A DNA stretch of 64,000 bases from Chlamydiota bacterium (GCA_027366035.1 DAHXLK010000052.1:1949-65948), one strand, 5' to 3'; positions 9,229 to 63,446 are shown, counted from the stretch's first letter. Notes: generated from the letters alone by a model not told the origin. A program made the numbers and translations.

Positions 9229-9275
9229 GGAAGCAAGGGTAAAATTTTAACCAACCGGGAGATCGAAACAGTCCC
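9229..9275. repeat. partial copy of the palindromic element family (A-prime arm only)
   Basis: ggaagcaagggtaaaattttaaccaaccgggagatcgaaacagtccc matches the right arm of the full copies. It carries the ccggg variant shared with 11605 and 46551. Confidence 0.85.
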
Positions 9276-9297
9276 ACTTTTAAAGTTTTAAAAAGTT

Positions 9298-10500
9298 ATG
9301 AGGGTCTACAAAAAATGGAAAGAGAGAGGGTCTTGGTGGGTTCTTAAACGGATATTTTTCGAAATAGCCGGGCTCTTCTTGAGCCCCTTTTTCTTACTCC
9401 TACATAAATGTGGAGTGCAAAGGGTGGGTATCCTGATACAACACATCGGTCACTTGGTAGGTGAATGTGACTGCTTTTTAAAATGGCAATCTCTCCAGTT
9501 AACCCCTAAAAAAAAGTACTATATTAGCTCTCCGGTTCCACTAACTTCTAACCCTTGTTTTCTTAGCTATTTACATCAGCATTTTTCCATAACTACCCAC
9601 CCTTTGCTTCATGAATTATTCCCCAAAAGAATAAAAGGCGCTTTTTACAATGTCTCCGATTTAATAGCCACAGAACATGGCGCGGCTAAATATTACGAAA
9701 CATATGCCTTATGGGGAAATAAAGGGCCCCTTTTTTCCCTTACTCCTTCTCATAAGAGTAGAGGGAGAGAGGTATTAAAGCGTTGGGGAATACCGGAAGA
9801 TGGTTGGTTTGTCTGTCTCCATATCCGCGAACAGGGGTTTATCCCCGAAACAGATGGTGAGCATAACTATCGAAATGCCAATATAAAAAATTACTTTGAA
9901 ACTATCGAATCTCTTACTGCTAGGGGAGGATGGGTGATTCGCATGGGAGGCAACTATTGCACGCCGCTACCCCAGTTTCCAAAGTGTATCGATTATGCTC
10001 TTAGTAAGGATAAAAGTGATTGGATGGATATCTTTCTTGCGGCTTCCTGTAAGTTATTCATAGGGTGTTCTTCAGGACTTTTTTTCGTCAGCGTCGCTTT
10101 CGGACCGCCATGTGTCTTAGTGAATATGGTCCCCTTTGCTGCAGCAGGATGCAGACCAAAGGATCTCTATATTCCCAAATTAATGCGGGATAAAAAGAGC
10201 GGCCGGCTAATCCCTTTCGCTGACATTTTCTCATCGCCTATTGCCAATTTTCGTCATTCTCACCTTTTCGAAGAGGCGGGAGTCGATGTTGTCGAAAATA
10301 CTTCCGATGAGATTCTGGCGGTTGTGGAGGAGGGGCTCCTTCGGATCGATGAAAAATGGTCTTGCTCTTTACTTGATGAGGAAAGACAGTTGGCTTTCAA
10401 AAAGCTATTTACTCCGGCCCATTATGGCTATAAAAATGCTTCTCGTATAGGAGCTAAATTCCTAGAAAAACATGAGTCAATGTTGTTGGGCAAAAAGTAA
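9298..10500 (+). CDS. putative glycosyltransferase, TIGR04372-like (paralog of 3157..4818 C-terminal half)
   Basis: WFVCLHIREQGF..RGGWVIRMGG..LFIGCSSGL aligns by eye with 3157..4818. Confidence 0.4.
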   Translation: MRVYKKWKERGSWWVLKRIFFEIAGLFLSPFFLLLHKCGVQRVGILIQHIGHLVGECDCFLKWQSLQLTPKKKYYISSPVPLTSNPCFLSYLHQHFSITTHPLLHELFPKRIKGAFYNVSDLIATEHGAAKYYETYALWGNKGPLFSLTPSHKSRGREVLKRWGIPEDGWFVCLHIREQGFIPETDGEHNYRNANIKNYFETIESLTARGGWVIRMGGNYCTPLPQFPKCIDYALSKDKSDWMDIFLAASCKLFIGCSSGLFFVSVAFGPPCVLVNMVPFAAAGCRPKDLYIPKLMRDKKSGRLIPFADIFSSPIANFRHSHLFEEAGVDVVENTSDEILAVVEEGLLRIDEKWSCSLLDEERQLAFKKLFTPAHYGYKNASRIGAKFLEKHESMLLGKK

Positions 10501-10659
10501 CTAACCCTACAGGATAAAGAGGATATGGCGATCTAAATATATTACAAAAGACTTAAGCGTTAAGGAAGATTCTTTTTATTTTGCTGTGTAATGATCCCCA
10601 ATGATTTACCTAAATCACACCGATTAAGTATATTTATGATTTAGTTTTTTTGAGGGCTG

Positions 10660-11604
10660 ATGAAAATTCTTGTTACGGGGGGATGTGGGTATAAAGGACA
10701 CAGATTGATCCCCAAACTTTTGGGGGAGGGTTATGAGGTCATCGCTTTTGACATCCAGTGGTTTGGGAATTTTTTACCGCCACACCCTAAGCTCAGAGTT
10801 GTTCAGGGAGATATCTTAAAACCGGACACCATTCCTTTAAATGGTGTCGATACAATTATCCATCTTGCCTCTATAGCCAACGACCCTTGCGCCGATTTGG
10901 ATCCCAAACTCACCTGGGAAGTGGTAACTTTAGCTACCATGCAGCTGGCGAATAGGGCTAGAAAATTTGGGATTCGACGGTTTCTCTATGCTTCGTCGGG
11001 AAGCGTTTATGGGGTAAAGGGGGAAGAAAAGGTGACGGAAGAGCTTTCTTTAGAGCCGTTATCTGAATACAATAAGGCGAAGATGGTCGCAGAAAGGGTC
11101 CTGCTGAGCTATCAAGATGAGATGGAGATATACATCGTCCGTCCGGGGACTGTTTGTGGGTATTCTCCTAGGATGAGGTTTGACGTAGTAGTCAATATGA
11201 TGGTGATGCAGGCGTTATCCAAAGGAAAAATGACGGTGCTGGGAGGGGGTCAGATCCGTCCCAATATACACATTGAAGATATCTGTGATGTCTATCTCCA
11301 CCTCTTAAATTATCCCGAGTATGTGGGGATCTATAATGCCGCTTTTGAAAATCTCTCTATCATAGAGATCGCCAAGCTTGTCCAAAAATATCTTCCTGTA
11401 GAAATCGAGATCAAACCCTCGAATGATCCTAGATCGTACCGGATGAATTCCGACAAACTTCTACGTACCGGATTTCAACCTAAAAAAAATGTGGAAGAAG
11501 CTATTGGTGAGATGATCTCCCAATTTCGAGGTAAGGCAGATGAGGATCGCTATTACAATGTGAAATGGATGAAACAAACGGTTTTGACAGGAAGCATCCA
11601 ATGA
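10660..11604 (+). CDS. NAD-dependent sugar epimerase/dehydratase (extended SDR)
   Basis: MKILVTGGCGYKGHRL Rossmann motif and YNKAK catalytic motif. Confidence 0.75.
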   Translation: MKILVTGGCGYKGHRLIPKLLGEGYEVIAFDIQWFGNFLPPHPKLRVVQGDILKPDTIPLNGVDTIIHLASIANDPCADLDPKLTWEVVTLATMQLANRARKFGIRRFLYASSGSVYGVKGEEKVTEELSLEPLSEYNKAKMVAERVLLSYQDEMEIYIVRPGTVCGYSPRMRFDVVVNMMVMQALSKGKMTVLGGGQIRPNIHIEDICDVYLHLLNYPEYVGIYNAAFENLSIIEIAKLVQKYLPVEIEIKPSNDPRSYRMNSDKLLRTGFQPKKNVEEAIGEMISQFRGKADEDRYYNVKWMKQTVLTGSIQ

Positions 11605-11691
11605 GGAGACTGTTTCGACCTCCCGGTTGGTTAAAACTTTACCCTTGCTGCTCCGGATTTAATTTTTTTAAAAATGTCTATACCTTAGCGG
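11605..11691. repeat. partial copy of the palindromic element family (A arm plus left part of core)
   Basis: ggagactgtttcgacctcccggttggttaaaactttacccttgctgctccggattt..aaaatgtctataccttagcgg. It starts at the nucleotide after the TGA of 10660..11604. Confidence 0.85.
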
Positions 11692-11700
11692 AGATCGCCA

Positions 11701-62063: not shown

Positions 62064-62128
62064 TACCGATCTTTAGAAACCTCTGAAAAAGACGCTGGCA
62101 GGTAGTTTCGAAGAGATGGATGGTTTTA

Positions 62129-62288
62129 GGGGACTGTTTCGACCTCCCATTTGGTGAAAGTTTTACCCTTGCTTTTTCGGATTGGATTTTTTTAAAAGTG
62201 CCTATAGTAGGATATGTCACTTTCAAAAAAATCAAACCAACTTTGCAAGGCTCACATTTTTATACAAAAATGGAGAGGGAAACAGTCC
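62129..62288. repeat. full copy of the palindromic element (A arm - core - B-prime arm, degenerate right tip)
   Basis: ggggactgtttcgacctcccatttggtgaaag...ggagagggaaacagtcc. It ends 2 nt before the stop codon of the convergent corA. Confidence 0.85.
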
Positions 62289-62290
62289 TA

Positions 62291-63211
62291 TTAAAGCCAC
62301 TTTTTCCTGAGGAAGATGATGATAGAGGCGATAATTCCTATAATGCCTAGGTTGAGCAAAACGATGAAAGCCCAAGGATTGTTAGAAAGGGGGAGGACGA
62401 CATTCATCCCGTAAAATGAAAAGAGGATCATCGGGATGGTAAAAATGATCATAATCGCGGTTAGCCTTTTGATGGTCTTATTGACGTCATTGGTAAAGAT
62501 GATTTGGTAGGAGTCTCTAAGGCTTTGAATGCTTTTAATATTAACATTACAAAGATCCTCAGATTGCCGTATGGCTATAGTAAGGTCTTGTAAAAGATCT
62601 AGATCATTTTCATAAAGGTGGACAAACCTACCGGAGGAGATGGCTTCTAAGAGGTTTCTCATAGGGACAAGAGAGGTGAGATATTGGTTTAGGATCTCTT
62701 CACTTTTTGTCAGGTTGACGATTGCGACGCTATCAATATCAGATAGCTGTTTTTCCTGCTCTAAGACGATAGCTCTTACCCTTTTGATATTGATATTAAA
62801 TTCTTGGGTGATCCTCAGGAGGATATGAAAGAGAAGTTTGGAAGTTTGTTCGGTAGTCACTCTTAGGGAACTAGTTAGAATTTGATCGACGACACCACTA
62901 GTGTGTGGCGATATGGTAACGAGGTATTGAGGAGTGAGTAAGATGGTCAGCGTTACTGTGTAAAGGCCAAGCTCTTGCTCGGCAGGATGACGGGTAAAAA
63001 TTAAGATATTTGCCCCTTCATGCTCCACTCGAGGAATCTCATATTTATCTAAGGCATCTTTAAGGTCGGCAAAATCGATATGAGTGAGCTCCATAATCTT
63101 ATCGAGATCTTCGATGGAGGCTTCGAAAGCGTGGATCCAGGAATGGAGTCGTATTTCTTCGGATTTGATGAACTCATTGTCGTTTAAAGACTTAAAGAAA
63201 TAGTGTATCAT
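62291..63211 (-). CDS. corA: CorA-family magnesium/cobalt transporter
   Basis: YGMNV (GMN) motif between two C-terminal TM helices. Confidence 0.85.
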   Translation of the reverse strand: MIHYFFKSLNDNEFIKSEEIRLHSWIHAFEASIEDLDKIMELTHIDFADLKDALDKYEIPRVEHEGANILIFTRHPAEQELGLYTVTLTILLTPQYLVTISPHTSGVVDQILTSSLRVTTEQTSKLLFHILLRITQEFNINIKRVRAIVLEQEKQLSDIDSVAIVNLTKSEEILNQYLTSLVPMRNLLEAISSGRFVHLYENDLDLLQDLTIAIRQSEDLCNVNIKSIQSLRDSYQIIFTNDVNKTIKRLTAIMIIFTIPMILFSFYGMNVVLPLSNNPWAFIVLLNLGIIGIIASIIIFLRKKWL

Positions 63212-63279
63212 CGATCCCCCCCTCTAATCCGAATTATATCAGTTTATGTAATAAAAATTTTTTTAGATAATTACTTAAA

Positions 63280-63446
63280 GGGACTGTTGAAATCTCCCAT
63301 TTGGTTAAAATTTTACCCTTGCTTCCTCGGATTTTATCTTTTTAAAAGTGCCTATATCTTAGTAGAATATGTCACTTTTAAAAAAAATCAAACCGACTTT
63401 GCAAGTCTCAAATTTTAAGAGTTATAAGGAAGATCGCAACAGTTTC
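63280..63446. repeat. full copy of the palindromic element (A arm - core - B-prime arm)
   Basis: gggactgttgaaatctcccatttggttaaaattttaccc...gaagatcgcaacagtttc, located upstream of corA. Confidence 0.85.

Follow-up and report, generated by a model that had tools for sequence, protein, structure and literature searches.

The Correia elements (CREE/NEMIS) of Neisseria are miniature inverted-repeat transposable elements (MITEs): short (about 100–160 bp), non-coding, intergenic and high-copy, with inverted ends, a hairpin fold and no clear autonomous partner. Their ends are 26 bp long and they duplicate TA. The ERIC/IRU repeats of enterobacteria (ERIC is ~127 bp) are full-length imperfect palindromes, intergenic and often just downstream of genes. 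Rickettsia palindromic elements (RPEs), noted for inserting in frame into protein genes, are palindromic repeats of ~100–150 bp that have proliferated in an obligate intracellular bacterium. Tn3-derived inverted-repeat miniature elements (TIMEs) leave a 5-bp duplication and have ends starting GGG(G); in the Tn3 family the ends measure ~38 bp and contain an inner ...TAAG motif. Chlamydiae, too, live as obligate intracellular bacteria. Expansions of insertion sequences (ISs), and of ISs only, have been described in Rhabdochlamydia (PMC9723776). Here we analyze a 64,000-nt stretch of DNA from a Chlamydiota bacterium (GCA_027366035.1 DAHXLK010000052.1:1949-65948), the window hereafter, which carries a non-coding imperfect palindrome of ~165 bp in seven full and four partial copies. 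These repeats very probably form a MITE family, that is, 165-bp non-autonomous DNA transposons composed of two inverted ~80-bp arms.

A preliminary description of the window had likened the repeats to Correia elements and ERIC. The likeness stands in kind; it does not extend to sequence, since a blastn search in distant mode of 5,426 complete E. coli genomes found no match to the family consensus, nor to the duplication, which here is 4–5 bp of variable sequence rather than TA. The termini are unrelated to those of Correia elements, the host phylum is another, and neither site counts nor gene orientation favour use of a promoter-like site. ERIC/IRU repeats also differ from the window family in its 165-bp length and clear 4–5-bp duplications. 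The window family has the 5-bp duplication of TIMEs, and its ends start GGGA or GGGG, but the inner TAAG is absent, the 4-bp duplications of the closest relatives do not fit Tn3, and no Tn3-type transposase was seen. Unlike RPEs, 38 of the 38 window-family copies that we located are intergenic or touch only gene ends; copies within open reading frames (ORFs) were found only in a relative, OY970364.1. IS6/IS26-type ends (GGCACTGTTGCAAA) are accompanied by an 8-bp duplication. The window termini resemble them at 10–11 of 14 positions (by eye), but the duplication is 4–5 bp, not 8.

The sequence had not been recognized in the preliminary description, and we too found no match to a described family in Rfam, plasmids, E. 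coli or the searchable literature. Rfam gave no hits at gathering thresholds over the whole window; below threshold there were only long plant microRNA hairpins, the best of which, a plant MIR hairpin, scored 31 bits where 144 are required. A plasmid collection contained no match to the element, and we found no literature description of MITEs in Chlamydiae or of these terminus sequences. In kind the element is ordinary, bacterial MITEs being common; the novelty lies in the family itself and in its occurrence in this phylum.

Target-site duplications, a check recommended at the outset, were scored at profile-fixed boundaries in 27 full copies, with 5000 random positions at the same spacing as controls. 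Perfect direct repeats of exactly 5 bp flank six of the 27 (ATCCA, ACATT, ATATG, AATAT, ATGAT and ATTAT), and 4-bp repeats flank two more; none exceeds 5 bp. Duplications are thus present in eight of 27 full copies, against a control rate of 0.2% (10/5000) for at least 5 bp; at least 4 bp was seen in 37/5000. The duplicated target sequence is AT-rich. All six perfect 5-bp duplications, around window copy 36810–36974 and five copies on contigs L188–L195, start with A, which suggests a target preference at that position.

These flanking duplications are a direct footprint of staggered-cut transposition, and they support the MITE reading. The generic features of bacterial MITEs are also present: size, lack of coding capacity, inverted ends, fixed-length duplication and many dispersed copies, in what is presumably one genome. 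A transposase acting in trans would bind the termini and cut the target with a 5-nt stagger, and gap repair would then make the duplication; the termini and cut spacing of the window lineage may have co-evolved with its own transposase. The burst of copies was probably old, because mean pairwise identity is 82% (69–98%) and only ~30% of duplications are intact. Copies would persist only between genes, since insertions elsewhere would be purged by selection.

The set of window copies was the same by BLAST (with the copy at 36810 as query) and by nhmmer (with a profile of the seven full copies), and the strand of each copy was set by its two unlike arms. The count of seven full and four partial copies made initially was recovered in both searches, whose boundaries place the first coordinates within 1–16 nt. 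The quoted central core is present in the copies, and intergenic placement holds for every window copy. Shared termini had likewise been reported: the 15-mer terminus GGGACTGTTTCGATC occurs 12 times in the window at up to two mismatches, compared with a mean of 0.09 in shuffled sequence, where no shuffle reached 12. Column identity among the seven full copies averages 89%. By length, main-family copies account for 2.3% of the window; of its intergenic DNA they account for about 20%.

The full copy nearest to consensus is at 36810–36974 (plus strand; nhmmer 177 bits), with perfect ends GGGACTGTTTCGATCT...AGATCGAAACAGTCCC and a fold of −61 kcal/mol. Flank comparison places its direct repeat ATCCA at 36805–36809 and 36975–36979. 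The copy at 38014–38180 (minus; BLAST and nhmmer) has a right arm of the TTGAAATC/TTTAGC type and abuts a repeat of a second family (37854–38013). Between the divergent groES and pepF genes, the copy at 43926–44090 (minus) has the same variant at both ends, GGGGCTG...CAGCCCC. Two full copies nearly touch stop codons: 46415–46580 (minus) lies 1 nt from that of rpiA (46582–47253, minus), and 62130–62289 (plus), which lacks 5 nt at its centre and is degraded at its right end, lies 2 nt from that of corA (62291–63211, minus). The right end is also degraded in the copy at 63280–63446 (plus). These four were delimited by nhmmer. The remaining full copy, 53981–54144 (plus), was also found by inverted-repeat search; in place of its right arm stands an inverted left-arm type, its 82-nt arms are 87% complementary, and it folds at −100 kcal/mol. 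With both arms of left-arm type, it shows that an arm can be replaced by its partner's inverted copy, as could happen through recombination of copies lying in opposite orientation.

The partial copies were all placed by nhmmer. Three are left arms: 9213–9275 (minus; model positions 1–68) overlaps the final 7 nt of ORF 8722–9219; 11606–11692 (plus; positions 3–88) begins 2 nt past the stop codon of an epimerase gene (10660–11604); and 24958–25013 (plus; positions 1–56) adjoins a second-family fragment (24876–24943) upstream of clpB. The fourth, 37749–37854 (minus; positions 59–165), is cut off exactly at the start of the second-family repeat, and supplies the last 10 codons and stop codon of ORF 37029–37778.

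Window genes include groEL/groES, pepF, rpiA, tyrS, clpB, corA and a POT transporter. The closest relatives of PepF are Chlamydiota bins at 52–53% identity, and the host is therefore a deep-branching uncultured environmental chlamydia. The exact central-core pattern had no match in species-representative genome contigs or in JGI metagenomes, so the organism is absent from those collections. A scan of the species-representative contigs for the 15-mer terminus yielded, among the matches listed, chance matches only. One of these, in Simkania (L060), is a single terminus with neither partner nor element homology and was treated as chance.

Further copies were sought by translating the long open frame of the element, aligning the peptides and searching a protein database. 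This returned ten small ORFs called on other copies of the element, in eight more contigs of the ENA metagenome assembly ERZ27233573 and one contig of a second ENA assembly. The eight contigs hold 27 more copies, bringing the total to 38 distinct copies in ~178 kb on nine contigs. Among their genes are typical chlamydial ones, for example cdsD of type III secretion and those of the V-type ATPase, and the contigs probably come from the same organism as the window, because they share its private repeat. We give next to no credence to a local segmental duplication or assembly artefact in place of a genome-wide family. Clustering of copies within the window is all that speaks for it, whereas the copies on the eight other contigs lie among unrelated flanking genes and copies differ by 2–31% in sequence. 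The independent Logan contig L107, retrieved with the window pepF, begins 43 nt inside the copy upstream of pepF, an assembly effect expected of a high-copy repeat, and the contig from the second ENA assembly (L194) holds the same insertion. Neither of the two outcomes that the preliminary description had named as counting against it, confinement to the window and a match to an already described repeat or noncoding RNA family, is what we find. The family is not a local duplication, and the proposal of a MITE family is sustained by dispersal over nine contigs, terminal inverted repeats and target-site duplications.

Relatives of the family occur in other chlamydiae. The profile was run against 624 kb of PepF loci from ~37 chlamydial genomes and matched one homologue, in the metagenome-assembled genome CAZVXF01 (nhmmer E = 3e-5 and 1e-4). 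This element has the same length as the window family and aligns with it end to end in the same register. A pattern built from columns common to both families matched nine stretches on eight contigs of CAZVXF01, and also one other chlamydial bin, but nothing outside these two genomes. The CAZVXF01 element is multicopy, its copies 91–96% identical, with ends GAGGGAATTGCAA...TTGCAATTCCCTC and 4-bp duplications.

The canonical 18-nt terminus of these relatives (GAGGGAATTGCAAAACTC) was found in at least 120 stretches from about 30 genomes among the matches listed. The records are mostly labelled Chlamydiota, including Waddliaceae, Rhabdochlamydiaceae, Parachlamydiaceae and Simkania bins; the closed 2.28-Mb chromosome OY970364.1 carries such elements, in young copies, and one Lentisphaerae bin has them as well. 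A few single terminus matches in unrelated taxa are at chance level. Exactly 4-bp duplications flank 46 of 92 paired elements of this type, whose sizes cluster at 55–100, 162–168, 180–184 and 255–260 bp. The window family has in common with them the 162–168 bp class, the same register from terminus to CCATTTGG, the GACATA..CC centre and the hairpin architecture. It differs in that the outer ~17 nt at both ends are replaced, with full compensation, by GGGACTGTT(TCG/GAA)ATCT, and in that its duplication is mostly 5 bp instead of 4. The canonical terminus does not occur within three mismatches in 178 kb of the window organism, nor the window-type terminus in 927 kb of loci from canonical-terminus genomes. 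Since neither terminus type is found in the other's genomes, and the duplication is mostly 5 bp, the window family is a divergent sister lineage. As judged by alignment, the window element is a divergent member of a superfamily and homologous to it over the full length. That superfamily, in ~30 genomes mostly labelled Chlamydiota, is apparently undescribed.

Some element-bearing bins have unexpected labels. Bins labelled Verrucomicrobiae, Acidobacteriota or Chlamydia trachomatis carry canonical-terminus elements (MFD04463.bin.c.15, MFD01633.bin.2.10, SZAS-8/9/16 and MaH-04nov19-293). Another, BOG_genome_mining.12, has an outer-membrane protein family in common with chlamydial loci, and the similarly labelled SZAS-6 and MFD01223.bin.2.71 rank among the chlamydial PepF relatives. 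We suspect that several of these other-phylum bins are mislabelled chlamydiae; the labels look unreliable. In OY970364.1, canonical-terminus elements lie within long ORFs and are read through in frame (L221:1019-2239 and L210:2830-4011); one example is a MutY-like protein containing ...EEFCNSL..., the translated terminus, which recalls RPEs.

Copies of the window family are 157–176 bp long. The inverted part is not confined to the 15-nt ends; the element is imperfectly palindromic over its full length, with two arms of ~80 nt. The preliminary description had stated that the two halves can pair into one long hairpin and had proposed folding the consensus. The consensus fold has an energy of −68.7 kcal/mol, compared with −29.4 for shuffled sequence (z = −10.1). 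Energies of single copies run from −37 to −100 kcal/mol, with z of −3.4 or lower throughout, in agreement with that statement. The inverted termini GGGACTGTTTCGATCT / AGATCGAAACAGTCCC are kept across copies, there are two exchangeable end versions (...GTTTCGATCT and ...GTTGAAATCT), and several arm types are mixed between copies. Two copies, at L189:16514-16677 and L195:1789-1945, each have a private substitution matched at both termini (GGGCCTG...CAGGCCC and GGGATTG...CAATCCC, respectively) and each have a perfect 5-bp duplication; their contigs are among those attributed to the window organism. Matched terminal changes are also seen in the sister family (L205, GATGG...CCATC; L202 and L228, GAGGCAGTTG...CAACTGCCTC).

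The lack of coding capacity noted earlier is upheld. Frame +1 of the element (e.g. window 36811–36945) is open for ~45 codons in five of the seven full window copies and has a stop in the other two; its start codon is not conserved, and there is no conserved start-to-stop gene in the element. In six frames of an AT-rich 165-mer, an open stretch of 45 codons is not significant. The database ORFs of 52–77 aa called on the element (P0001–P0010) are annotation artefacts that serve as a handle for finding copies.

Conservation of the hairpin was examined in an alignment of 14 sequences, one element from each of 11 other genomes plus three window-family copies. Standard pairs form in 93.9% of cells against 78.6% after shuffling, compensatory change affects 40 of 62 hairpin pairs (21 shuffled) and 127 cells (33 shuffled), and pairing falls to 30–55% when partner columns are slid by 1–3 positions. 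Therefore something constrains or regenerates the fold. Within the window family, one-sided changes number 202 and compensated ones eight, where chance predicts ~5; a further 12 double changes abolish pairing. The palindrome thus appears to be a property of propagating copies, not one maintained at individual insertion sites. Either mobility would require the palindrome, or new master copies would arise by palindromisation, a possibility shown by the copy at 53981 with its replaced arm. Once inserted, a copy would decay neutrally.

Conserved complementarity without conserved sequence across genomes, together with the lack of a DDE partner, could also fit a single-stranded DNA hairpin, akin to REPs or palindrome-associated elements, whose mover is an IS200/IS605- or REP-RAYT-type tyrosine (HUH/Y1) transposase, in place of a cut-and-paste element with inverted ends. 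We consider this very improbable. Such elements insert beside a fixed short motif and have neither target duplication nor long terminal inverted repeats, whereas here variable-sequence 4–5-bp duplications flank 18-nt conserved inverted termini. REPs, at 20–40 bp, are well under the size of the present element, and no Y1 transposase appeared among Pfam annotations of the fetched contigs, in which no systematic search for one was made.

Uncompensated decay of inserted copies argues against a host function for each copy, and bears on a further alternative: that the element is a host-selected structured RNA or DNA signal (a terminator, mRNA-stabilizing 3′ hairpin, small RNA or protein-binding site), with mobility secondary. 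The long stable hairpin, the strong covariation across genomes and the conserved centre motif are as such a signal would have them, and several copies lie 0–3 nt from stop codons (window 46415, 62130 and 11606; L195:10003 and L188:15570). Yet compensation within the family is near chance (8 against ~5), 12 double changes undo pairing, the stem is not followed by a T-run, no Rfam family matches, and the target-site duplications show arrival by transposition. Nor does placement favour it. By hand tally, ~9 copies lie between divergent genes, eight between convergent and 17 between tandem genes, about as intergenic regions occur, and copies are as frequent between divergent genes as downstream of 3′ ends. 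Of the genes next beyond the left-arm end, 21 are directed away from the element and 13 toward it, which is not a significant bias; the 13:4 orientation among tandem genes (p ~0.05, uncorrected, with some copies in adjacent pairs) was not taken as real given 21:13 over all contexts. One arm type has a promoter-like site (TTGAAA-16-TAAAAT), which is present in 13 copies, with a co-directional downstream gene in seven and not in six (hand tally). Neither promoter-like nor terminator-like sites are enriched over the shuffled region, and with the unsupportive gene orientation a promoter or terminator role was rejected. A host-selected signal is on balance improbable. Integron attC sites were ruled out by the housekeeping neighbours in mixed orientation and by the duplications.

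Several findings weigh against the MITE reading. A recognizable duplication is kept by only eight of 27 copies, and its length differs between the window family (5 bp) and its relatives (4 bp). The compensation of 40/62 pairs across genomes is not predicted by simple recognition of termini by a transposase. Neither 178 kb of the window organism nor ~0.93 Mb of canonical-terminus loci yielded a transposase gene flanked by these termini, and the window's one IS was rejected as partner, its ends being unrelated to the 165-bp family. This complete-looking IS of the ISNCY family (22811–24474) contains a transposase gene at 23109–24404 (minus strand; 442 bits to NCBIfam NF033594) and has 30-nt inverted repeats TATTTGTTAGCG... 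/ ...CGCCTACAAATA, with no target duplication visible. Other candidates for an autonomous partner fared no better. Terminus pairs 0.5–4 kb apart enclose unrelated housekeeping ORFs, with none recurrent. When 980 ORFs taken from 128 loci were clustered, the families that emerged were outer-membrane, ABC and MFS, along with one ISAs1-like transposase with its own CAGGGCC... ends, and the interiors beside unpaired termini had only an IS66-like remnant in common.

A different account would make the folded hairpin (single-stranded DNA or RNA) the mobility substrate or an obligatory intermediate: the ~80-bp stem would be needed, 4–5-bp duplications would be left, and the transposase would be encoded away from matching ends or outside the chlamydial genome, for example by a eukaryotic host or co-infecting virus. 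It would explain complementarity conserved without sequence in ~12 genomes, uncompensated decay and the missing autonomous partner. We hold this account to be unlikely.

As a MITE family, the repeats would alone make up about a fifth of the intergenic DNA in the window. The 18-nt terminus of the relatives, conserved in ~30 genomes, points to a phylum-wide mobile-element lineage that could mark gene flow among chlamydiae sharing hosts, and these elements probably cause contig breaks in metagenome bins of chlamydiae. The palindrome, apparently selected or regenerated in propagating copies and then decaying after insertion, offers a natural experiment. The private change at both termini, together with the shift in duplication from 4 to 5 bp, may be a compact case of co-evolution of element and transposase.

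The only other repeat found in the 178 kb is the low-copy second family. Its palindrome of 160 bp at 37854–38013 starts with CTCACCTTACGCAATCCATGGTCCA, and fragments occur at 24876–24943 and 54157–54181; all three lie directly beside a main-family copy. In a nested cluster at 37749–38180 the second-family repeat lies between a truncated main-family copy on its left and a full one on its right. Two window proteins are candidates for lineage-specific or eukaryote-like chlamydial proteins: a 247-aa protein (53061–53804, minus strand) with a weak RING-finger match (E = 8e-4, below the Pfam cut-off), and the product of a 1421-aa ORF (32486–36751) with no Pfam domain.

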